Shown in pieces: positions 1,198-63,638 of a stretch of DNA of 64,000 bases. Source of the DNA: Schmidtea polychroa. Lineage: Eukaryota. The translations under genes were made by a program, and so were the position numbers. The stretch spans positions 34,536,001 through 34,600,000 of the forward strand of contig CM097885.1 in assembly GCA_044892525.1 (NCBI GenBank), given 5' to 3'. Under the pieces are notes generated by a model. The model was not told where the DNA came from. It was given only the letters and a program-made list of their open reading frames with translations, and did not search any database. The first letter of the stretch is position 1, and every line of letters begins with the position of its first letter.

Positions 1198-2150
1198 TTA
1201 TTTAAAAACACTCAACACACAAGTATTTACTGCATTCTGCACATTAATTTTCGGATTCAATGATTTTATCAAAAACGCCTCACAAATCACACGTTCCCAA
1301 TAATTATCGAAATTTTTTAATAAAATTTTAAAATCAGACATACCTATTTTAATCTTACAGCCCTTATTGTGCTCACCAATATGGGTCAAAGCCTTCGGTC
1401 TACAATGTTCTCGAGCTCGAATACAGAGATGACGGGAAGTCTCTCCAATGTATGTGGCATTACACCCATTACATGTAAACTGATAAACCGGAGTTTTGGA
1501 CTTATTAATAAACATATTGCGTACTTTCCATGAAGTTGACACTATCCTATAGTTTAAATTCCCTAACTGCAATACTAACACAAATTTAGGCTCATCATCC
1601 TTGCTCACACTATTTAATTTATTTAACTCATCAGACTCACACACCTCAACAAAATCAAACCCAGATTTTAACTCATCAGACTCATACATCTCAACAAGAT
1701 CACACCCAGATTTTCTCAAACATGGATCCTTAGGATTTTTAATAAATTTGTCAACAGTCTCTTTCACCATAATTACTAAAAAGGATTTTGAATAACCGTT
1801 CTTCATTAACAATTCAACCAATTCAACACTTTTTACTGAATTTTTAAAAGTAGATGACAAAGACCATGCACGATAAATCAACCCCTTCACCATATTTCTT
1901 TTATACTTGAATTCACAAAAACTTTCGGAAGAAGTATAGAGACCAGTATCAGTTGGTTTTCTATAAATCTCTGTCTCATAGTGTTTCTCTTTGCGTTGTA
2001 TTAACAGATCCAATAAAGCAAGCGATGATTTTTTCTCCGTTTCACATGTGAATACAATGTTTTTATGTAGACTATTCATATAATGCAAAAACGGGTCAAC
2101 ATGCCTCTGATTTTCAAAAATAAAAAATATCATCCACATACCGTTTATAA
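1198..2150 (-). pseudogene. PLE reverse transcriptase C-terminus (YVDD to thumb) and GIY-YIG endonuclease
   Basis: YKRYVDD at about 2148, then a frameshift into FTCETE..LALLDLLI..YRKPTDTG, then VYQFTCNGCNATYIGETSRHL..RAREH..CEAFLIK..NPKINVQ. The first ~55 aa of the listed 1198-2313 ORF are antisense read-through of the inverted arm. Confidence 0.88.
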
Positions 2151-2178
2151 ACGGTATGTGGATGATATTTTTCTTATA

Positions 2179-2484
2179 TTGTGTTCCGATCTCGTTTATC
2201 AGTTTACATGTAATGGGTGTAATGCCACATACATTGGAGAGACTTCCCGTCATCTCTGTATTCGAGCTCGAGAACATTGTAGACCGAAGGCTTTGACCCA
2301 TATTGGTGAGCACAATAAGGGCTGTAAGATTAAAATAGGTATGTCTGATTTTAAAATTTTATTAAAAAATTTCGATAATTATTGGGAACGTGTGATTTGT
2401 GAGGCGTTTTTGATAAAATCATTGAATCCGAAAATTAATGTGCAGAATGCAGTAAATACTTGTGTGTTGAGTGTTTTTAAATAA
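2179..2484 (+). pseudogene. Inverted duplicate of the PLE GIY-YIG domain
   Basis: LCSDLVYQFTCNGCNATYIGETSRHL...VFK* is identical to the C-terminus of the minus-strand copy from VYQFTC onward. Confidence 0.88.
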
Positions 2485-4789: not shown

Positions 4790-5890
4790 TGTTTGAATGT
4801 TGACTTCGAATTACTCACATTCGGTTACACAGTTAAAGTAGATTCGGAAATTCTAGAATCTATTCATTATAAGCCTGACGATTTCCCTGTTGCTGCTGAA
4901 TAGATGCGTGCACCAGGATCCAAAGTGTAGATGTTGATGCTTACGCATTATTCCAAAAAGAATTATGTTGTTCATTGAAGACTTCTCCAGCTTTATTTAA
5001 ATATTGGGGTAAAAGTCACTAAAATTCATCGTGCTATACAATTTGAACAATTATCAACATTTAAAAATTATATAGAAATTAATACACAGCTTAGAGTTTT
5101 ATCAACAAACACACTTGATAAAAATTATTTCAAATTATGAAACAACAATCTGTACGACTGTTGAAAATTCAAAAAAGCGTATAAATTTAAGACTTTGCAT
5201 CTCTGTTCAAAAGTATTAACTTGTTGCTAAAAACCAAATTTTACAATGAAAACTAAAATTGACGACGATTTAATATTAGTTTTGTTAAGGAAAGACTTAA
5301 TATGTCTAAATAGACTTAGTTTTATTGGTCAAAGCGCTCTTGATATTTCTAAATTGAGTATGTACCAACTTCAGTATATTGATTTGGAAAATATCGAAGT
5401 GAATTTAATTGTCAAATAAATATCATTGCTCGGAACACAGATTCCTTTTACCTAGAAATAAACAAATTAGAAGCTTGATTCTCTTTTACCAGCACTGATA
5501 AGGGATAATTTATTAGACATGTCTAATTATGATATAACACATTCTTTATATTCAAGCAACCTTGATTCTGTAATAGGAAAATTTAAAGATGAGAGCAAGG
5601 GATTTGGATATGACGAATGGATATTTTTAAGACCTAAATGTTATAGCATGGAGGGTGATAAGGGTGTATGAAAGCGAAGGGGTTCACAATGAAAGAAACT
5701 GGTATAAATTATCAGTCATATCTGAATTGTTATAACAATAATGAAATCTATACGGTGCCCCAATTTAGAATAACGAAAAAGAATTAGTATTAAAATTTAT
5801 TAGTATTAAAAATAATAAGATGGCTCTAACTAATGCTGATGATAAGCGCAATCGGATACTTAAAAATAAAGGTTATGCGATGGGCATTAT
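4790..5890 (+). pseudogene. Degenerate protein-primed family B DNA polymerase (Polinton pPolB), C-terminal half
   Basis: Manual translation across stops and frameshifts gives, in the expected order: GYTVKVD..IH..DDFPVAAE; KNYVVH*RLLQLYL..G.KVTKIHRAIQF; YFKL*NNNLY; FIGQSALDISKLSMY; NTDSFYL; VIGKFKDE; LRPKCYS; KAKG; DDKR. Confidence 0.85.
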
Positions 5891-7887: not shown

Positions 7888-8988
7888 TTAAACCTTGTGT
7901 CGCCTAGAATTTGGAATATAACTTACGATTCTCGACATACCAAAACTTTCTTCTTGTTCGGTGACAAATATTTTATGCCACCTAAATATCCTTTGAAACA
8001 AATACCAAAGATCTCGACGATAATGTTCACTAGTAGATACATAAATCAAAAAATTACAACAAGAATCCACAACAACGAGGGCTCGAGTTATTTGATAAAG
8101 AACCATGAGATTGCTCAACCCATTGGGATATGTGAACTTTAACAAAGTGATAATAAAAATCGGGATTTCTGTGACAGTGAAAACACCGGCTAAAACTGTA
8201 ATTGTCAAAGTGGCTTTCTGTTGAGATGTCATACATTGCGTTTCATTCTCTCGGAAATACTGTTTGAGTAAATGCGTCGATTTGAATGTTTGTTTAAATA
8301 GGAAATAAATCATAGTTAAAGTAGAAATCGTCACAATAACGACTGGAAAAACTGACTGATAAATAAAATACCCAATTTCAAAACACTGATAGAGAGAACT
8401 GTTTTTCCAATGGGAATCGAAAATTATTTTGTTTTCATTCTCGCAAACTATGGCTTTCTTGTAGAATACTCGTATTACGGAGAGCGAGAATGATAACAAC
8501 AGCACGATAATTGTGTACAATCTCGATTTACAAGAGGAAAATATTGAGTACGATCTGATTTTTAATGGTCTGAAAATCGCCTCTAATCTCGCCAATGCTA
8601 CGAGCATTACCATCCAGTTTCTTGAACACAATAAAGCATTAATTGACCAAAAGGTCAAAGTACTGAATATCATTGCTGATACATATTTATCATCTGGTAA
8701 ATGAGCGAACATTGAGATTTTGTCGGTAAAAATCCACAAATCCAACACCAATTCAATAATTGCATGATATAAAGAAGTGTACCTCATGTTGTGAGACCGA
8801 CCTTTGAATCGAGGCTGGGACAAAGTAAAAACTGTCAAAGTATTCGTGACGAATCCGATAATTGCAACAACCGCGATAAAAATATTCGTCGAATAATCGA
8901 ATAGTTCATTTTCGTATGAGCTTAAATTGAGATTTTTATGAAAGTAATAAACATTTGAACAGTTTCTAACATAATGTATTAGAAACAT
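7888..8988 (-). CDS. Intronless rhodopsin-like (class A) GPCR, probably of the flatworm-expanded orphan PROF1-like group
   Basis: 366-aa ORF with 7 hydrophobic segments: TM1 IIGFVTN, TM3 RNWMVMLVALARLEAIFRP (DRY changed to ARL), TM5 FP, TM6 FTVTEIP, TM7 DSCCNFLIY, helix 8 YRR. Subfamily assignment is from memory of the motif. Confidence 0.9.
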   Translation of the reverse strand: MFLIHYVRNCSNVYYFHKNLNLSSYENELFDYSTNIFIAVVAIIGFVTNTLTVFTLSQPRFKGRSHNMRYTSLYHAIIELVLDLWIFTDKISMFAHLPDDKYVSAMIFSTLTFWSINALLCSRNWMVMLVALARLEAIFRPLKIRSYSIFSSCKSRLYTIIVLLLSFSLSVIRVFYKKAIVCENENKIIFDSHWKNSSLYQCFEIGYFIYQSVFPVVIVTISTLTMIYFLFKQTFKSTHLLKQYFRENETQCMTSQQKATLTITVLAGVFTVTEIPIFIITLLKFTYPNGLSNLMVLYQITRALVVVDSCCNFLIYVSTSEHYRRDLWYLFQRIFRWHKIFVTEQEESFGMSRIVSYIPNSRRHKV

Positions 8989-10200: not shown

Positions 10201-11042
10201 AAAGCTTAATGTTAAAATAACAATAACTTTACTTTGTTGCAGATTTTGGATGCTTAAAGCACCATTTTTCTTATGTTCTTATTAACCTTTTGATTTATTT
10301 TACAAACAATACTATCGGCGATTATATATCGTCTAGTACAGACGGATTCGAAAAAGGCCCATAACTTCATGATGTAACTCTGTATTTTGGAGGTGTAAGT
10401 AGGTGACACCACGAGTTTACTGCATTGGGTGACATCAAACCAAATGATGCTTTTACTCAGGTCTCTAAATTCATCTATAATTTCAATTTCAAAATCTTCA
10501 CAACTTTGATAATGAATCAACTTTTAACGATAAAACGTTATTGTCTGAGGTTTGAAATGCCATTGAATTAGAATAAAAAAGTATAAAGTGTGATACTATT
10601 TTATTAATTCCAAAATTCAAATATGCATTAAACAAGGTTGCTTTAACTTCACTGCTATCAATGAATAAATACTTTTGATAAAAAAATTTATATCATTTTA
10701 ATTTAAATAATTTTGAAATAGTATAAAAAAAGGTCATAAAAGGTCATAAAAGGTCATAAAAGGGCTTTTGAAAATATCAATTTAGTGTAAGTACCCGTAT
10801 TACAATTATAAAATAAAAGTTATAGTAACAGGGGGTCAAAAATTTATTAATGAAAATAACTACAGCATAATAAATATGCAGGCCAAATACAGTAGGCAAG
10901 CTACTGTATGGGGTGTTTAATCGACTTGTGTGCTATTTTAGGGCACAATCATCCATTTCATTATTCTTGTGTCGTTGATAGAAGCCCCGATGATTTTTAT
11001 ATGTCTTTCTGGAACCTATAATAACTCTTTCTATCATTTTGA

Positions 11043-11315
11043 GTAGTGTGTTAATATCCCTAACCAAAACAGCCCTCCCAACAAAACATACCTCCATTAC
11101 GCCTAAACCATTAGAAAAACAACCTAAAACTTATACTTTTATAGTATTTTAACCCTATATTTTTGAAAACAACCACCCTTAATACCCCTAACTGTTTTAA
11201 TCTTTAAAGCCTCAAACTCAAAAGCTTCAAACTAAAAACATAAAGAGAATAGAAAAGAAAATGGTATTATGAAAAAGTTAGAGGGCTTTTTTGGTTAGGG
11301 ATATAAACACACTAC
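11043..11315. mobile_element. MITE-like element with ~35-bp TIRs
   Basis: GTAGTGTGTTAATATCCCTAACCAAAACAGCCCTC versus the reverse complement of the right end GTAGTGTGTTTATATCCCTAACCAAAAAAGCCCTC; TTGA flanks both sides. Confidence 0.85.
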
Positions 11316-11831
11316 TTGAGGCATTGTTTTGATCGTAATCAAACTCCGGAGTTGATCTTTATCAGATTATTGATTTTAAATTATATAAATTAAAAAAATA
11401 AATGAAAAAGAATAAAACTGCTCTGAGAGGACAGTGGTATTTTTTTTTCACTGTCCTCTCAACAGTTTTTTGATCCGGATCATTTTTTTATTTATCAACC
11501 TCTTTCGTTTATCAAATCTCTTCCAATATACAAGCTGGCCAGACTCATACATCAGAATCAATTCGATCTCGAAAGTACAAATGAATTCGAAAGCGAATCC
11601 GAAAGAGGTCCGAAAACAACTGAGAAAGGGATCGATCCGGGGTGTGTTCGAAAGACTGGTGGCGATAATTACCGGTTCACCATCACACCCGTTTCAATAT
11701 TTTTTTTTTCATATTTATGTTTAAAAATTAATTAATTAATAGAAAAATAAAATAAAATATACAACTACTTTATAAATCTAAGATACCCACACTATTTATT
11801 ATTTTCAAATTTTTAATATTATTTTATGTTG

Positions 11832-11911
11832 AAAAAAAACTAACCACAGTTAGGATTTGAACCACTATCCATTTGAACCACTGTGTCAGTCTAGCCCACT
11901 GCGCTATCGGG
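11832..11911 (-). ncRNA. tRNA-like / Pol III type-2 promoter unit (not a canonical tRNA)
   Basis: Minus strand has A box TAGCGCAGTGG, B box GGTTCAAATCC (AGTGGTTCAAAT occurs twice) and an oligo-T run just downstream. I could not fold a clean cloverleaf. Confidence 0.5.
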
Positions 11912-11950
11912 CTTTGGATTTTTGTCATTTTTTAAATTTTTATTATAAAA

Positions 11951-13242
11951 ATGAATAATATAAATCTTAAAATTCAAGAAAAAAATTAATTAAATCTTGA
12001 TTATAATAAAGAATTTACTCAGGAAATCAAGAAAAATGATATTTTAAAAATCTCCCCAACTTCAGGATCTATTGCAAACTTAAATCGTAGGGGTGATATA
12101 GTTTTTCAATCTCTTCAAACATCAAACCCAATAGATATTTGTAATGCCAAATTATATTACAAAGTAGAATTAGAAATTGAAGCAAACAAAGATATAACCC
12201 TAGAAAATAATTTCTTTCCAAATTTATTCTCCAATATGAGATTAAAACTAGGATCATCAGAAATTGAAACTGTTTTACATCCGGGAGTATATTCTACAAT
12301 GTTAAATTTTATTTTGACTGGTTGTGATTATAAAAATGAATATGGTGAATTAATGGGTTGGATTCCTGATACTAATAAAGGAGATTTAGATAAAGATGGT
12401 TTAGATATAAATTATGGTTATTATAAAAGAGCTGAACTTTATAAATCTAAAAAATTTGAAGGTTATTTTGAATTAAAACACTTGTTTGGATTCCTTCAAA
12501 ACTATAATCGTATACTTCATAATGTTTTTATAGAATTCATCTGTAATAGACTAGTAGGTGATAAAAGATTGTTCTATGGAGACAAGGATACAACAGCTAA
12601 ATTAAAATTATCAACACTTGAATTGCATATACCTGAATGGACATTAAATCCACATCTGAGATTAAACTCCTTGAAAGATTAAATTCCAACAAATCTATAA
12701 ATGTAAATTATTTAAATACAATCTGTAGTGAATTTAGTATGACAGAGGGTTCAACATATTCTATAAAGGTAGCAAATTTAGCATACCGACCAAGATATAT
12801 CTTGATTGGATTCAAAGAAGTAGATTCATCTTTCCAAAAAAATAACAATCTATTTATTCAAAAGATTGGAGATGATAATTTAAAAACAATCCAAATTCAA
12901 TTAAATAGTTCTTATTATCCAATAAATAGAATGGAATTTAATATTGAAAATAATGAAAACATATTCCCATATCTAAATTATATTGAAACATGTTATGATT
13001 TCAAAGTTGAACCACAATTAATTTTAGAAGATTTCAAAAATTTATATTCTATATTTTGTATACATGTATCAGATCAAGATGATAGATTAGCCATAAATAA
13101 TGTTGATGTTACACTTCATGTAACAAAGGATTCTAATTTCAAAGCTAAAGTATATACATTAATATTAGAAGAAAAGAAAATAGAAATGAAATTATATGGT
13201 GGAAAGATTTCAATTATTGAAAATGTTAGGGGAGATTCTTAA
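11951..13242 (+). pseudogene. Polinton/adintovirus-like double-jelly-roll major capsid protein, ~430 codons, disrupted
   Basis: The frame of ORF 12236 extends upstream to ATG 11951 with one TAA at 11987. A 1-nt frameshift near 12652 joins ORF 12637. Motifs: LENNFFPNLFSNMRLKLG..IE...PG..STM; GW; LKHLFGF..NY; RPRYILIGF; IQLNSSYYP. Confidence 0.85.
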
Positions 13243-13259
13243 TATTTTAACATTTTAAA

Positions 13260-14711
13260 ATGTCTCTAAATAAACCGTATTGGAGATGTGAAACTTGTAA
13301 TTGTCAAGTTACAAAACATCACAAGGCAAATCATTTAAAAACTAAAAAACACATACTTGGATCAAATACTAATTCTTGGTTAGAACCCAATCCTTCAAGT
13401 AGATTTGCTTTTGAGAATCAACTCTTTGAAGGAGGTGATCTACAATCTTCAAAAACAACATCTTCAATATTAAAACCTTTTACTACAGAAAAATATCCAG
13501 GTGAAAGACATTTATTTAAACACAACTATACTGGACCAGGAACAAGGTTAGATATTAGATTAGATGAAAATAATAATCCTAAACAAGGAGAAGAACCAAT
13601 AAATAGAATTGATCAAGCAGCTTTAAAACATGATATTGCTTACAATTCAACAAATCTTAGAGATAGACATGTTGCAGATGTGAATTTAATACATGATTTA
13701 AATAATATACAAAATCCATCAACTCAAGAAAAGATTCAAAGAGCTCTAGTTAAATTAGCAATGAAAGGTAAGATTTTCATAGGCTTAGGACTTCCCCCTA
13801 GGAAAGCAAAAGATGTTGCTAATAAAAAGATTATTGAACAAGCAGACGCTGAAAGATCCCTCGAGAATATATCCAAGACTAATTCTATAAATTTACAAAC
13901 CCCAACAGAATCACAAATAAAATATGCTAATGAATTACACTATGAATTTAGAAAAAATAAAAAATATTTAAAAGTTCAAGTACATGAAAAAGATCAAACA
14001 TGGTCTGCAGATTTAGTCTTTATGCCAACCAAATCATCAGACCCCGAAAAATATAAAATAATTTTAACTGTAATGGATTTATATACAAGATTTGCCTTTG
14101 CAAGGTGTTTAGAAAATAAAACAGGATATTCTGTTACAGAAGCATTTGAAAATATATTTGAACAACATCAAAGAATTCCAAAATATTTATGGTGTGACAA
14201 AGGAACAGAATTTTATAACAAAGTTTTTACAAAGTTTTTAAATGAAAATGATATTAAATTATATTCAACAGAAAACGAAGGAGAAGCAGTCGTAGTTGAA
14301 AGATTAAATAGAACATTAAAAAATAAAATGTGGAAATATTTTACTGCTATTGGAAAACAAAAATGGAACAATGAATTGTTACAAAAGATTGTAAATGAAT
14401 ATAATAATGATGTACATAGTTCTATAAAATCAACACCTTTAAATGCTTCCTTGAATCCTTTGGAACTCATGAATCTTGAAACCATTAAAGTGGTAAATGA
14501 AAAACCAAAGTTTAAAATTGGTGATCGAGTAAGAATATTTAAATATAAAAATAAATTTGAAAAAGGATTCACAGCAAAATGGACAAATGAAATTTTTATT
14601 ATAAATAAAATACATTATACAACTCCAATAACATATAGCATCATTGATTTAAATAATGAAAAAATATTAGGTAGATTTTATAATAATGAACTACAGAAAA
14701 CAAGTTTTTAA
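13260..14711 (+). CDS. Fusion ORF: C2H2 zinc finger + VP1u-like phospholipase A2 + Polinton-type DDE integrase
   Basis: CETC..H.....H finger; HNYTGPGT..NRIDQAALKHDIAY..RHVAD (PLA2); WSADL, LTVMDLYTRFAFA, LWCDKGTEF, VVERLNRTLK, YNN..HSSIK.TP, KFKIGDRVRI..KG...KW..EIF (integrase core and SH3-like tail). Confidence 0.9.
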   Translation: MSLNKPYWRCETCNCQVTKHHKANHLKTKKHILGSNTNSWLEPNPSSRFAFENQLFEGGDLQSSKTTSSILKPFTTEKYPGERHLFKHNYTGPGTRLDIRLDENNNPKQGEEPINRIDQAALKHDIAYNSTNLRDRHVADVNLIHDLNNIQNPSTQEKIQRALVKLAMKGKIFIGLGLPPRKAKDVANKKIIEQADAERSLENISKTNSINLQTPTESQIKYANELHYEFRKNKKYLKVQVHEKDQTWSADLVFMPTKSSDPEKYKIILTVMDLYTRFAFARCLENKTGYSVTEAFENIFEQHQRIPKYLWCDKGTEFYNKVFTKFLNENDIKLYSTENEGEAVVVERLNRTLKNKMWKYFTAIGKQKWNNELLQKIVNEYNNDVHSSIKSTPLNASLNPLELMNLETIKVVNEKPKFKIGDRVRIFKYKNKFEKGFTAKWTNEIFIINKIHYTTPITYSIIDLNNEKILGRFYNNELQKTSF

Positions 14712-15031
14712 GTCGACAAGCCCTAAAACAAACTTTTCCATATTTCAGCTTCTTCTCTATCCAAATAAATATAATTATATTTTTCTTTCCAATGATTATC
14801 AACAAACATATATATCTTATCAGGTTCAACATTTGAAAATAAATCATTATATCTTTCAAACGAGTCAACATAGTCATAAGGATATATTCCTTTTGCTAAG
14901 CATGTAGAATATTCTTCTAGAGGAATATTATTTTTTTCCAAGAATTCTCGAGTGATTTTAAAATCTTCTGGTTTCATTGTTTTAGCTATTCCATCTAGAG
15001 ACATTTGAAGAAAGTTTAACGAGTCTATAAA
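14712..15031 (-). pseudogene. Polinton pPolB internal fragment (exonuclease region)
   Basis: FIDSLNFLQMSLDGIAKTM...LAKGIYPYDYVDSFERY matches the pPolB FIDS..F...SL and KG.YPY.Y.DS motifs. Confidence 0.8.
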
Positions 15032-15034
15032 TTG

Positions 15035-15290
15035 CCTGGCTTCAACATTTTTTTGCCTCTTTGGGTTTTTTCTGTTTCGAAATTCATTCCTTTAATTCTT
15101 AGTATTTCTTCGAGTGCTTTCTGGACTTCATTATGCTTGTTAGTCCTCATCTTCGTTCCTGTTACACACATGTTCAGCACGTGTATAGATGATTCGTGAG
15201 GGTTTTCGCAGTTTCTGCATTTTGTGCTTCCTAGTCTTCCTTCTTGGTTGGACTGCTTCATATTAAGGTCTAGCATGTTAGCTCTAGTAC
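15035..15290 (-). pseudogene. Fragment of an RLE-type non-LTR retrotransposon (R2/R4/NeSL-like): CCHC knuckle and start of endonuclease
   Basis: CRNCENPHESSIHVLNMC...KHNEV...E....LKP follows the CR.C...E+..H+L..C / RHN / KPD layout. Confidence 0.75.
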
Positions 15291-18200
15291 GTTGATATTA
15301 GACATCAATATTAATTATTTTTCTCATTTTAACTATATATCAACTTTGTTGAGCGCAGACAAGAAGTCATTTAGCATTGATTTAGAGTGGTTATTTTATA
15401 ATTCCAAAATCGACCGCAACTTAAAACAAGTTGGCCACCCTTGATTTAGAACATTATCAATTGGTATAGAAATTGTTATTCAGCAAAATTAGATTTAGTA
15501 AATGTGATGTTCCTTCACGTTACACGATATGGTGCTCAACTAATATTATTTGCTAGTACGAATATGTAACGCTCTAACATGGACTAATATATTAACCTTT
15601 CTGTAATTTTAGCCACCTTTGTTTTAAGAATGTCACATATGTAATGCCATTTCTTTCGATTAAAACAAGAACATGAAACAACTTTTAGATGTAAAGAAAA
15701 TTAAAATCAAGAAATAAATTTCAAAATGAGAAACATTTAGAGAGATCTAATTAAATTTTCCATATCTCGTTTATAATTTAAATGAAATCCAAATAATATT
15801 TTTTGTAAGTTGAACATCAATTAATTATGAAAGATTTGTAGTAAAACAAAATAATGTAATGTTTCCATTATTGCAGGATTATCTGGGAGATTATTTTATA
15901 TTTTGTACTTTATTTTTGTAAATAATTAATTATAATTGAAAGCTTTCTGTAGACGAAATTCAAAGCACATTACGAACAGTTTTATGCAGTTAACCCAGTA
16001 TAAATATAAATAGTTTACTATTTTTCAAATTGAAAATTGTTAGTCATTTAGTTACTGTTTTAATTTGTATTGCAACTCAAATAGAGCACATTTTTAATTA
16101 AATTTAAAAACAAAAAAAATTAATTTGAAATTATATCATTTAAAACAAAACAAAATAATTAAAATAAATATTTTTTCTCATACCAATTATTTTAATTTTT
16201 GTTTTAAATATCGGAAACAAAGTTCTTCACCGATCTGTATATATCAAGGCCGACTTAATCGATCAGTGGTGAAGAGGATAAAATATTTGACTGATATTAT
16301 AAAGCAGGTTTGAAAAATGTTCATCGAAATTTTTTTCCCATGAGTCAACCATAAATTGTGTTTAAAATAAAAAAATTATTCAAAAAAACGGTTTCTGGGA
16401 AAGCTTGGTGCAAATGGTCAATAAACAAATGATTTTTAGAGATTTAGATTTAAAATGACAGAAGTATTATAATGTGCAAAGAAAATAGTATCTATTGGTA
16501 TATAAAAGCTTCATGACAAATATGTTTTCACAATCACGAAGTAAAAAAATTTCCGTTTCAGAATTCAGAAAAGTTCATTATTTTTATCTGTTACACTATT
16601 TACAATGAACGATCTCCAATTAGTTATTTGTTAACCTGCTAACTGATTATGTCGCATATATGCGTCATTTTTAATAGATAACTGTAATGTGGTGATGTAA
16701 ATGTATTTGGATATATGATTGTCCTGTTTCCTATATTGTCCTATGTTAACTCTTATAATCATTGTGTATCAATGCATGCGTATTTGATTGATTATCTTGA
16801 TTGCCTGGATTATGTCATTGTTTATTATTTAACCAAATGATCCATGTACTATAGACACATGTCTACTTTTCATGAATATAACTTTTAAGTATTGCTATTT
16901 AATCTTATTACAAAGCGACCACGCTATCAACCAAATTTTTACAATAATATTTTACTAATAAACATATTGAATGAGAATTCAAAAACTTTGATAAAATACT
17001 AGAGAAAGTCAAAACTTTTGATTTAGACTCATGACAAGTTGGATGGTTTTACAGTAGCAGTCGTAAACAAAATGTAACAAAAGTTTAGAAATTGCTGCTA
17101 AGCCATTATCTTCAAGTCAATTAAGTAATGAATTGGCATTACGCAAAATGTATAAATGGTTTGGAGTAAAAATTCCCAAGCTTCATAGTGAAATCTGGTT
17201 TAAGTAAGAACCCATTTTTAAGAAATATAAAGATACAAATACTTAATAAACTGATAATAATAATTTTATACCTGTTTTGATAATTGAACAATATACAAAA
17301 CATGTTAAATAAAAAGGGAAATAATAATAAATAATAACAGCCATATATAAATAATTATCAAGAAAATAAATAAATAAAATTAGAAAATTTAAATAAAAAT
17401 AAAATGAATATAAATAATAATAAAAAATAATAATCAGCATAATAATTAATGAAAAAACTGTATAACGTATATTGATAAAATTAAAATAAATTAGGTTATA
17501 TGAAAATGTAAAACGTTACAATAATTACTAGAAATAAATATAGTTCAGTGAAGAATTAGAAGTTTAATGCAATATTTTATGGTTCAATGACTTTACTATG
17601 AATTTACTAATGAAATATCTACAGATCAACGGCAAAACATTCATCTCAGTGTGACATTAAAAGAAATAGGAAACATTCCCTTAGAGGAAACTTTTGTTTT
17701 CTCAACAGTGAGAAAGATTTTGACTTAAGAAATGTCAAATGCTTTCATTAAATGCCATCGGTGTGAAATTTAAAAGTCAACAGAAAATTTTCGAATAAGG
17801 AAAGAACAACAAATGAAAAAAACAAGTTTTAATTAAATTTTTGCAAAATGTTAAAGTAAAATATACACAAACGTCAAAAACGTTTTGTAGTTGCAAAAAA
17901 AATTTCTTTAAAATATAAAATTTAAAAATCGATGTCATTTGTTTTGAATTACAAAGTCTAAAATGTATTCGAACCAATCTTTCTTTTTTAATCATTTTAG
18001 GTATAATTCTGCACGGTGATGAAGGTTACCCTTGGAAATCGAGAGTTTAGTGTATTTTTTTAATTTATAAAACTTTATAATTTATAAAACAGAAACGTGT
18101 AGATTGTGGGATAAGTATATTCCATTTAAAGACTTTAAACTTTTTTATATTTTTTTATTTTTTAGAAAATAACAAATAAAAGTATTAAATAAGGAATTGC

Positions 18201-59267: not shown

Positions 59268-59523
59268 ATTTTATTTTTTTAATATTATGAGGAAGTTTTA
59301 TGATGAAGAAATTTTTAAATTGAAAATTTTAAAAATTAAATTTTAGATTAATTTTTAAAAAAAATAATAAGAAGATATTTTAATTAAAAATATCTTCGTA
59401 GAAAATTTGTTTAAATAAGAAAGTTTAAAGAAGATATAATTTGGTTTGATACTGATATTTACTGAAATAAAATTTATGGAAACAAAAACTGATTTTAATG
59501 TTTTACAGGATGAACCTCCTAAT

Positions 59524-60570
59524 ATGGTGGCAACGGTAAACACTGACGCAATCACCGAAAGATTGCTACCAAAGGTATTCTGCCAAGGTGACGACTTGGA
59601 AAAGTTCATTAAAAGATGCGAAATTTATTTCGACGCCAAGGGAATCACGCAGAAGAAAGATCAGGAAAGATTAACATCTTGCATGATTGATGAGGACCTC
59701 CTGGAAGTGTATGCCAAAACACTGAAAAAAGCCGAAGGATTCCAGGCTAGGTTGCGACTAGCATTCGATGGCGAAAGAGATGTTTTAAAGGATCTACAAA
59801 ACTTGTTGAATTACAAGCGGGAGGGTGAAGAAATAGAAACGTATTTTAAAAAGGTGGAGGACCTTGTTGATAGGTTGTTTGAAAATAAAGAATTTACCAA
59901 AGAGAAATTAACAGCAAGGATGTTAATAGTATGTGCGGAGAATAAAGAAGTTGAGAAAGAAGTGATACTACGGAAGATAAAAAGCACAGAAGAAATAAAG
60001 GAAACACTAATTCTGATGGACAAAGTAGACAAGCAAAGAGATCAGATAAACAGTATGAAAAGTTACGCCATAGTGGTCTATCAGGAACCACAGAGAAGAG
60101 TACAATACAAGAAGAAAGAACAGAGAGAAGAAAGTATCCGAAGAGAAATTCCAGAATGCTGGTTATGCCACAAAATAGGACACACGAAAATTGATTGTCC
60201 AATAAAAGGTGAAATAGAATGCTGGACATGTCATAAAAGCGGACATATAAGTAGAAACTGTCCAGATAAAAAAGCTCCAAGATGTTTTGGGTGTGGGAAA
60301 GAAGGTCATATAAGAAGATTGTGTCAGGAAATACGTTGTGAAAGATGTAGCAGAAATGGTCATAGATCCGAGGAGTGTTATACAAAGATGTGGTACGGGA
60401 GAGCGACGGAGAGACAAAGATTCACGGGAAACAGATACAGTCGGATAAATGGTATCGAGGAAGAAGAAGAAAGGGAACCGTGTGTAGAGACAAATGAAGA
60501 TAATTTTAGGAAGACGTACCCAAATTACAGGGCTCCACCAGTAGAGGAGTTGGTTGGAGCCATATTCTAA
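59524..60570 (+). CDS. gag: Gag with four CCHC zinc knuckles
   Basis: CWLC..GH....C, CWTC..GH....C, CFGC..GH....C, CERC..GH....C. The likely ATG is at the LTR/PBS junction; an in-frame upstream ATG also lies inside the LTR. Confidence 0.88.
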   Translation: MVATVNTDAITERLLPKVFCQGDDLEKFIKRCEIYFDAKGITQKKDQERLTSCMIDEDLLEVYAKTLKKAEGFQARLRLAFDGERDVLKDLQNLLNYKREGEEIETYFKKVEDLVDRLFENKEFTKEKLTARMLIVCAENKEVEKEVILRKIKSTEEIKETLILMDKVDKQRDQINSMKSYAIVVYQEPQRRVQYKKKEQREESIRREIPECWLCHKIGHTKIDCPIKGEIECWTCHKSGHISRNCPDKKAPRCFGCGKEGHIRRLCQEIRCERCSRNGHRSEECYTKMWYGRATERQRFTGNRYSRINGIEEEEEREPCVETNEDNFRKTYPNYRAPPVEELVGAIF

Positions 60571-63500
60571 CAGAAAATTTGATGGGATATCCTCAAGGGG
60601 CAGAAAAGTGGGAGAATGTTGGAAGGGTAAGCGAGAAAGTATACAGGTTCCTAAAGAGAGAAATGTTTGAAGAGGAAGTGGAAAGAATTGGAACCATTGA
60701 AACGGAGCAGGTTGTTGAAATTTTGTATAACAAAATGCAAGGAAGGCCTAGTATAACAGTAAGGATGAATGGGGAAAATTTCGACTGTTTATTAGACACT
60801 GGTGCAAGAATCAATGTAATGAGTGTGAACTGTTTTAATAAGCTACGAGGACAACAATTGACGAAAAGTGACGATAAGTTACGATGCGCAAACGAGAGTA
60901 CGATCGAGACAATAGGAAAAACGAAGGTGCAAGTAACCATTGGAAATGTTTCGAAGGAAGTTATATTCATTGTGGCGGAGAAAGTGACACCAGATGTGAT
61001 TGGAGGAATCGAATTACAAGAAACATTTGGATTTAGACTGTTAGAAATTAAGGATATCGAGGCTAGTGAAAAAGACAAGAACTATATTTGTAACATTGAA
61101 GCAAAATTTGGCAGAAAAATAAAGGATGAAGAACGATTGATACGAGCGTTGGAACAGTTAAAGATCAATGAAGATCGCAAATTAAAGGAAATTATAACAA
61201 ACAGTGGAAACGTGTTTATGGCAGATAAATGGGATGTGGGTCGCACACATTTGGTAAAACACAAGATAGTTACAAGAGGTGAGCCGATAAACATAAAACC
61301 ATATCGCCAACCACTAAATTTGGAATCAAAGATTTAAGAAGCAATACAAAATTTGTACGAAAATGGAATTATACGGAAATGTAATTCTCCATGGAATACA
61401 CCGCTAATATGTGTATGGAAAAAAGAGAAAAAGGATATTAGACTATGCTTGGACTTTAGACAGCTGAACGCGGTAACAGAGAGGCAGGCATTTCCAATGC
61501 CAAACATAGACGAGATGTTGGATTTGTTAGGAGGATCCGTCTTTTTCAGCTCAATCGATCTAGGTAATGCATATTACCAAGTGGAACTAGAAGAAGAATC
61601 ACAGGAGAAAACCGCTTTCTCAACAAAGAACGGACAATATTGTTTCAACAGAATGCCGTTTGGAATTGCAGCAGCACCAGGTACGTTCCAAGAAATGATG
61701 ACAAAAGTATTAGGCAAAATAAAGGGAGCAATGGTGTATTTGGACGACATCTTGATTTATTCAAGCAGTAAAGAGAAACACTATACAATACTCGGAGAAG
61801 TGTTAAAGGCGATTGAGCAAGCAGGCCTAAGGATTAATCCAGAAAAATGCCAAATAATAAAGGAAGAAATCAGATTCTTAGGACACATAATCAGCAAGGA
61901 AGGAGTACAGACAGATTCATCTAAAATTCAGGCCATACAGAACTTTGGGAAGCCTAATTGCGTAAAGAAACTCCGAAGCTTTTTAGGTATTTGCAATTAT
62001 TATAGAAGATTCATCAGTGATTATGCAAAGAAGGTAAAGATGTTAGAACAATTATGTAGCGGACCAAGTAACAAAAAATTAGAATTGAGTGAAGGAACGA
62101 ATAGCGTGTTTGAGGGATTGAAATTAGCACTCACGACGGCGCCAATCTTATGTTTTCCGGATCTGAAAAAGGAGTTCATTTTAGATACCGACGCTAGTTT
62201 CGATACCATTGGAGCAGTACTTTCACAAAGAGATAAAGATGGAATGGAAAGAGTAATTTCGTATGGATCACACTCGATGACGAGCCACGAGAAAGGATAT
62301 TGTATTACAAGAAAGGAACTATTGACGGTATATTATTTTTGCATTCATTTTAAGCACTATCTCTACGGAAGAAGATTCACGCTCAGGACAGACCACAAGG
62401 CAATCACGTTTATGATGACAACCAAGAAGCCGATTACTTCACAATTCCAAACATGGATCAATTATTTGAGCAGTTTAGATATAAGAGTAGAATACAGAAA
62501 GGGTATTAATCACCAAAATGCAGACATGGTGTCGAGAACTAAATGTGACACGTGTGTTCACTGTCAAATGGCCCACGAAGAAGCTAAGAAAGGAAAGATA
62601 AAAACCAGATTACTAGACTCGATCAGAGAAGAAGGAAGAAGCAACATCCAACATGAAATTGTAGAAGAAGTACGAAAGAAAACGATGATACCTGAAAATG
62701 AGTTACAAGAAACAATAAAGGAAATACATAGACTATTGTGTCATGCTGGAGTCGAGAAGATAGCCGATTATATGAAAGATAGATATGTTGGAAAACACCT
62801 GTGGAGTCAGATTCAGGAAATTGTTCGAAGTTGTGAGATTTGTCAAAAAACCAAGGCTTTAACAATAACAACGAAAGAACCAGTAAAAAAACAAGATTCG
62901 AAGGAAATGTTCGAAATTATAATCGTGGATATATGTGGACCGTTGACAGAAACAAAAGGACGTAAGAAGTATATATTGAGCATAATAGATCAGTATAGTA
63001 AGTATCAAGTCTTGACAGCGATAACAAAACAAGACGAAGAAACGATAAAGAAAACGATTTTAGAAAAGTGGATTTTAAGATTTGGATGCCCAAAGGAGAT
63101 AAGAGTTGATTGCGGAAAGTCGTTTGAATCAGGAATGATGAGAGAATTCACAAAGATGCTAGATATTAAATTATGTTTTTCGAGTCCATACCATCACCAA
63201 ACAAACGGTCAAATAGATAGACAATTCAGGACAATACGGGATTTGATAAATGCTACTTTACAGGATAGAAAGAAGACGGATTGGGCAGAGATATTACCAG
63301 AAGTTGAATTCACTTTAAATGCAACCAAACAAAAAACGACAGGGAAAAGCCCGGCAGAGATAGTTTTTGGAAAAAAGATTAGCAGGGAAAAATGGTACGG
63401 GTCCAAAGAAATACCGATAAAGGAAGAACTAGAAGAACAAACAAGGAGAAAATTCAATGTAGAAGAAGAAGTATTAGTAAAAGTAGAAACACGCCACAAA

Positions 63501-63638
63501 GGCCAGGACAGGTATGAAGGTCCGTACAAAGTGATAGAGAAAGTGCATGACAGACGATACATCTTAAGAAATGAAGATGGAAAAAGGATCGAAAGAAATG
63601 TGGAAAAACTTAAAAATTTCTTAAGAAGGGGGATATGA
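60525..63638 (+). pseudogene. pol: Pol (protease-RT-RNaseH-integrase) with one in-frame stop at 61335-61337
   Basis: LLDTGA; RLCLDFRQLN; YLDD; DTDAS; H..LCH..C..C; D..D..(IDRQ). ORFs 60579 and 61353 share one frame, which is open back to 60525. Confidence 0.92.

Follow-up and report, generated by a model that had tools for sequence, protein, structure and literature searches.

The window, the whole 64,000-nucleotide stretch of Schmidtea polychroa DNA analysed here, carries a 483-amino acid open reading frame on the plus strand (13260..14711) in which a zinc finger, a parvovirus-type phospholipase A2 (PLA2) and an integrase are fused, as indicated by its stop-free frame, Pfam matches and an AlphaFold model. 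A preliminary description of this DNA had correctly reported that the frame is uninterrupted and that it starts 17 bp 3' of a capsid gene, the stop of which lies at 13242. The motifs listed in that description are likewise all present: the PLA2 calcium loop (Y90-T-G92-P-G94), the catalytic motif H124-D125-x-x-Y128 followed by A139-D140, and the integrase DDE triad (D251, D313, E347). Two Pfam families match above their cut-offs, PF08398 at residues 84-165 (38.6 bits against 23.9) and PF00665 (rve) at residues 242-335 (46.3 bits against 32.6). The PLA2 domain comprises residues 76-177 or thereabouts (13485..13790, plus strand), as judged from PF08398, fold matches and conservation, and ends in K171..G175-x-G177, G175 being invariant in the alignment of homologues. 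Its motif residues are kept in 56-58 of 58 family copies, and H124, D125, Y128 and D140 in 116-119 of 118-119 aligned homologues; D251, D313 and E347 are kept in 58, 57 and 58 of the 58 copies, respectively. The integrase region (13920..14708, plus strand) consists of the RVE core bearing this triad and a beta-rich C-terminal domain, assigned from Pfam, the AlphaFold model and fold matches; Pfam gave no chromodomain match on it. Between the two enzymes is an in-frame linker of variable length (13791..13919, plus strand). The -1 slippery junction of relatives, described below, falls within this linker, and an in-phase slippery site is absent from the PLA2-integrase junction of the window.

The N-terminal finger (13287..13352, plus strand) has the C2H2-type pattern C10, C13, H25, H31, as the preliminary description had proposed. 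Because no Pfam family matches it above cut-off, its identity rests on this pattern and on conservation, C10 and C13 being kept in 58 of 58 family copies. A C2H2 leader occurs in 12 of 120 homologues and a CxxC-CxxC ribbon takes its place in 22 of 120; the N-terminal finger is a swappable, variable leader. A Gly-Gly motif 5' of the PLA2 domain (13431..13436, plus strand) is a candidate site for a maturation protease, and a GG motif is found at this location in 72 of the 78 homologues long enough to score. These glycine motifs were compared with the adenovirus-protease consensus. The same motifs also flank a standalone PLA2X gene (locus L061), and their presence around PLA2 is therefore no proof that PLA2 is cut away from the integrase.

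The AlphaFold model of the window protein (pLDDT 81.6, pTM 0.55) contains three modules, with low-confidence joints at residues 36-65 and 201-209, and the fold matches to the model as a whole are retroviral (foamy-virus), mavirus and MELD-virus integrases. When the PLA2 part was folded alone, its top match among solved structures was the plant PLA2 2wg7 (Z 6.9, rmsd 4.0, 91 aligned residues), bee PLA2 scored Z 5.3, and its matches among viral models were mainly parvovirus VP1 regions. These middling Z values support a PLA2 fold for the predicted structure without proving it.

The fusion frame resides in a deleted member of a Maverick family. Upstream of it lie the left terminal inverted repeat (11042..11970, inner end approximate), which starts with AGTAGT and matches both ends of full copies, and the double jelly-roll major capsid gene (11951..13242, plus strand), recognized by PF21738 on both of its pieces and by tblastn with a sister copy, and frameshifted near 12655. 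Directly 3' of the frame is the 3' tail of an A32-like packaging ATPase gene (14723..14851, minus strand), which was identified by sister-copy comparison and had been missed in the preliminary description. A 7.2-kb internal deletion joins this tail, with an 8-bp overlap, to a 190-bp piece of a protein-primed PolB gene (14844..15033, minus strand; comparison with full copies). The copy ends at 15033 and retains the left terminal repeat only.

Several other features were observed in and around this copy. The terminal repeat's first 36 bp are found again, inverted, some 240-275 bp inward, both in the window (11042-11316) and in most sister copies, so that each Maverick end resembles a small separate element. 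Just 5' of the capsid gene is a tRNA-like stretch (11846-11911) that is found in one subfamily and in which ARAGORN detected no tRNA; other subfamilies have a different sequence or a small 89-amino acid open reading frame at this position. Adjoining the truncated Maverick end is a 90-amino acid frame (15025-15297, minus strand) that has no Pfam match and whose CCHC and endonuclease-like pattern we take to be that of RLE-type non-LTR retrotransposons. A second, distant PolB-like fragment at 4964-5653 (29% identity) probably belongs to another Maverick family. Elsewhere in the window, Pfam matches mark a GIY-YIG-like open reading frame (1198-2301, minus strand), an intronless Srw-type seven-transmembrane receptor gene (7888-8988, minus strand), and a gag-protease-pol set of Ty3/gypsy type (59476-63638, plus strand).

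Searching the host genome (781 Mb) for the fusion gave 9,554 candidates, the best-ranked 88 of which were scored, a choice biased toward intact copies; full-length matches to the fusion were found at 89-97% identity. Ten copies were fetched with wide flanks and share a single arrangement of genes, namely capsid, PLA2-integrase, an ATPase in opposite orientation, a pX-like gene, a putative protease and penton, two more open reading frames, and PolB, the whole enclosed by terminal repeats that start with AGTAGT. Four of the ten have both ends and a 6-bp target duplication and measure 14.6-15.6 kb. Each element has a single PLA2, and the pX-like frame, which has weak PF05829 matches, is a separate gene. 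In a sister copy, PolB was recognized by PF03175 (a partial PolB was scanned), the capsid by PF21738 (89 bits) and the ATPase by PF04665 (31 bits). The frames that we presume to encode protease (141-154 amino acids) and penton (about 254 amino acids), on the basis of their motifs, have relatives in other elements and no Pfam match above cut-off. Its PolB, integrase, capsid and ATPase genes, together with the repeats and duplications, place the element among the Maverick/Polintons, and the family is young, high in copy number and roughly 15 kb in length. A search of the host genome with the capsid C-terminus gave 2,406 first-look candidates, and most of the 150 that were scored have a capsid frame of at least 430 amino acids, indicative of a large burst that was very recent. 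One copy and a partial copy in inverted orientation are arranged head to head (L035-L036), and another arrangement (L037-L038/L054) has mirror-image flanks instead of a target duplication.

The frequency of the fusion was determined in 69 loci for which the capsid C-terminus served as anchor, a sample that avoids selecting on the fusion frame and still favours young copies. These loci comprise the 29 other loci of the capsid search and 40 picked from the rows that follow, 7 apparent duplicates or already-listed rows having been skipped. Both domains are present in 68 of the 69, and H124 and D251 are in the same frame in 66. No stop codon separates these two residues in 63 copies, and the whole frame is open in 43, which makes an open frame the default in this young family. 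Selection was assessed in 58 non-redundant copies by comparing variants common to at least three copies with singletons, a crude column count that ignores recombination. Shared variants in PLA2 comprise 2 nonsynonymous and 15 synonymous changes (dN/dS 0.05, against 0.77 for singletons; Fisher p 1.3e-4), and those in the integrase core 4 and 9 (0.16 against 0.89; p 0.010). The linker shows no such difference (0.85 against 0.91; p 1.0), the capsid gave 0.15 against 0.70 (p 1e-7, 52 copies), and the estimate for the C-terminal domain of the integrase is noisy because of truncated loci. These results, which include the dN/dS check proposed in the preliminary description, show that PLA2, the integrase core and the capsid are under purifying selection, and therefore that selection took place while the element was being copied, not after insertion.

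The preliminary description had also raised the possibility that the host has co-opted the open frame as a cellular gene, and had named a copy-specific deletion or lost stop as the finding that would undo its own reading of the fusion. Both ideas draw on the state of the window copy, where, as was noted then, the adjoining capsid and PolB genes are broken. Yet the family is very numerous, capsid and polymerase frames are open in sister copies, the identical fusion is in frame in 66 of the 68 copies with both domains, and singleton variants are near neutral. Since selection acted during copying, we reject a lost stop peculiar to this copy as well as co-option by the host, both of which we judge extremely improbable. 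Thus, the fusion frame is a normal gene of this Maverick family and not an accident of one copy. None of the sequencing runs listed as containing the stretch is recorded as RNA; contigs from four runs presumed to be RNA cover it in fragments, which gives no indication of expression or splicing.

The pairing of the two domains extends well beyond this family. PF08398 and PF00665 are both found in 110 of the best 120 of 940 homologues, among them two named GenBank proteins, from a coral and a sea spider, that bear generic product names; the architecture is thus not unique. In contig collections the PLA2-integrase pair is surrounded by genes for capsid, ATPase, a protease-like protein and PolB, arranged in a number of different orders. 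Among viral contigs a single-protein scan gave no match, and an alignment scan gave six loci, one of them fused. PLA2-integrase pairing is therefore widespread. Long PLA2-first frames lacking an integrase were also observed: a 1,130-amino acid open frame at L151:4612-8001 (G000:C1 near 52.6 Mb), and similar ones at L146, L147 and L152-L154, in which PF08398 is the sole Pfam match and which we take to resemble densovirus VP1 genes.

Many relatives differ from the window family at the junction between the two domains, where they have a -1 slippery site, also missed in the preliminary description. Among 86 related loci, 59 contain both the end of PLA2 and the start of the integrase, and in these the integrase is in frame with PLA2 in 34, at -1 in 19 and at +1 in 6; where both domains are unbroken, the counts are 14, 10 and 2. 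Grouping into lineages at 85% identity, with a decayed 13-copy family (4, 5 and 4 among the three frames) left out, gave 24 lineages in frame, 12 at -1 and 2 at +1 (binomial p 0.013 for -1 versus +1), and with two further loci added (L167 at -1, L166 at +1) 13 lineages are at -1 and 3 at +1. An in-phase A-AAA-AAN heptamer lies directly 3' of the PLA2 GxG in 8 of the 10 unbroken -1 loci. Runs of six A followed by C in -1 loci (L075, L101, L104, L106, L145) are all in the X-XXY-YYZ phase. Furthermore, 8 of the 10 have no methionine before the first catalytic aspartate of the integrase, and the only such methionine in the other two is 5' of the junction. Apart from the junction itself, all ten are intact across about 1,050 coding bases.

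Protein collections contain the corresponding PLA2-only products. A search with one of them found 1,080 relatives, and most of the 120 listed end no more than about 15 residues past GxG, after a lysine pair. The frames of these tails were read by hand, the references being loci of known DNA sequence (L094, L112) and naturally in-frame proteins from within the clusters concerned. A tail of the -1 type was seen in 15 of 15 sampled members of cluster P0143, in 14 of 15 of P0202 (2,359 members), in 13 of 15 of P0159, in 11 of 15 of P0207, and in 10 of 15 of P0141, where 3 were in frame; P0137 gave 8 at -1 and 2 at +1. Clusters P0360 (14 of 15) and P0090 (11 of 15) are in frame despite lysine runs. 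Ratios between clusters are approximate, since cluster size does not equal copy number and fragments are drawn into clusters whose lead protein is in frame (in-frame junctions in 4 of 15 for P0331 and 7 of 15 for P0332). A classifier that assigned frames to protein tails by likelihood was rejected as biased toward -1 (14 of 20 cases of known DNA right, 1 of 4 at +1), and a count of A-runs inside unbroken domains, tried as a control, was dropped as circular.

These junctions might alternatively be defects, the fusion being the sole functional form throughout, with -1 loci having arisen by mutation of A-run length in dead copies or by homopolymer errors in assembly. A-runs do mutate, as the three +1 lineages and the 4/5/4 distribution of the decayed family demonstrate, and the clusters dominated by -1 tails contain natural in-frame variants. 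The largest -1 cluster, moreover, derives from megabase contigs for which the sequencing method is unknown, and slippery sites share no stimulatory RNA structure 3' of them (mean z -0.19, against -0.14 in control windows): a hairpin follows the slippery site only in L145 (z -3.0) and, weakly, in L075 (-1.75), and the in-frame locus L089 also scores low (-3.3). Against this explanation stand the excess of -1 over +1 among lineages, the slippery phase of every A-run as short as six, the stop position kept by all 15 members sampled from one family and by 13 of 15 from another, both seen on many contigs, and the ten loci unbroken everywhere but at the junction. We consider this explanation fairly unlikely. 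It is instead likely, to judge from the pattern of the sequences, that a programmed -1 frameshift, or some other slippage on the A-run, yields much PLA2 and little PLA2-integrase in these relatives. In a quick tree the window protein falls in a 22-row group that is entirely in frame (SH-aLRT 90) and the -1 rows are scattered; six rows were less than half filled and the protein rows had been picked for being in frame, so the tree gives no ancestral state. The clade of the window appears to have hard-wired the junction in frame. The in-frame form as a cause of high copy number was considered and found unsupported, a -1 cluster likewise having thousands of members.

The phospholipase of parvovirus VP1u acts in endosomal escape. 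We lean toward the view that the PLA2-integrase is a virion-packaged polyprotein, in which the predicted PLA2, as a virion protein, would serve to cross the endosomal membrane as in parvoviruses, and the integrase, riding into the particle joined to PLA2, would be delivered for insertion. In the -1 lineages frameshifting would make PLA2 molecules plentiful and PLA2-integrase molecules scarce, and in the window family every PLA2 would carry an integrase; the element's protease may then release the domains. Purifying selection on both PLA2 and capsid during multiplication of the element makes a virion role plausible; packaging of the product is on balance probable. Its trimming by the protease at the glycine motifs to either side of PLA2 is suggested more tentatively.

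The link between the enzymes could instead be regulatory only, the junction setting the timing and amount of integrase, with no packaging and with PLA2 acting inside the cell or being released early. An element with a double-stranded DNA genome can make its integrase once inside the cell and does not need to package it, and the IS1 and IS3 transposases, which use -1 shifts as a throttle, offer a precedent. A purely regulatory link nevertheless fits poorly with the joint selection on capsid and PLA2 during amplification, with an adjacency that dozens of lineages keep whatever the neighbouring genes, and with an in-frame clade that has no throttle and still retains the link; we regard it as quite unlikely. 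A large branch of animal Mavericks might operate in a manner reminiscent of Gag-Pol, a programmed -1 frameshift carrying translation of a virion phospholipase on into the integrase, with particles that hold many entry enzymes and few integrases and the clade of the window being fixed in frame; on this view selection on capsid and PLA2 during amplification would mean that these elements multiply in the host genome through particles that re-enter cells, a broader proposal that we advance with reserve.

A conserved physical link between an entry enzyme and an integrase suggests an answer to two open questions, namely whether animal Mavericks spread as particles and by what route their integrase gets to incoming DNA. 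Selection within a genome on PLA2 and capsid is indirect evidence of a particle stage. Both the short frameshift signal and the 120-residue PLA2 domain can be tested without the whole element. Additionally, many Maverick integrase genes labelled as split or dead may be recoded, which calls for caution in annotation.

In retroviruses, Gag is a structural protein that is read by a -1 shift into Gag-Pol, a minor product that carries the integrase, and the read-through proposed for the -1 relatives would resemble this arrangement. Unlike retroviruses, these are double-stranded DNA elements with neither reverse transcriptase nor Gag, the upstream partner is a phospholipase, and the stimulatory structure is mostly missing. 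Recoding in the same group of elements has been suggested before, in PMC11071296, for the Penton and Hexon-Adenain genes of adintoviruses; these are other genes, and the parts of that article drawn on here do not mention the PLA2-integrase junction. Term searches of the accessible portions of PMC8502044, PMC3671162, PMC5803895, PMC4061559, PMC4642659, PMC11071296, PMC11131425, PMC10748475, PMC8097293 and PMC4028283 found neither a PLA2-integrase fusion nor a frameshift between the two; an earlier mention, for example in Repbase, is possible. In one further known system a PLA2 with kept catalytic residues and an integrase occur in one element, but as separate open reading frames.

Among the closest counterparts are the alpha adintoviruses, or Maverick-Polintons with PLA2X, which, in the portions of the literature considered, share with the window family capsid, ATPase, PolB, RVE integrase, terminal repeats and a parvovirus-like PLA2. 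Their PLA2X is a gene of its own with a C-terminal pX domain (Starrett et al. 2021, PMC8502044), and adintoviruses are defined, in the relevant part of PMC11071296, by an integrase with a C-terminal chromodomain and by an OTU-like domain at the N terminus of PolB. The window family, in contrast, joins PLA2 to the integrase, has its pX-like domain as a separate gene, and has an integrase without a chromodomain match, although one relative (L094) has a weak match in Pfam; because the pX-like part is separate, the gene of the window family is not PLA2X. Packaging of Polinton lipases for entry has been proposed in PMC4642659, as far as the part of it used here extends. Compared with the VP1u PLA2 of B19, for which the residues are given in the part of PMC3626588 used here, the window protein has the same YXGXG loop, HDXXY motif and downstream AD (Y90, G92, G94, H124, D125, Y128, A139, D140), a longer interval from loop to histidine, a shorter one from histidine to aspartate, and no clear counterpart of Y168; and where the B19 enzyme is tethered to a capsid protein, that of the window family is tethered to an integrase.
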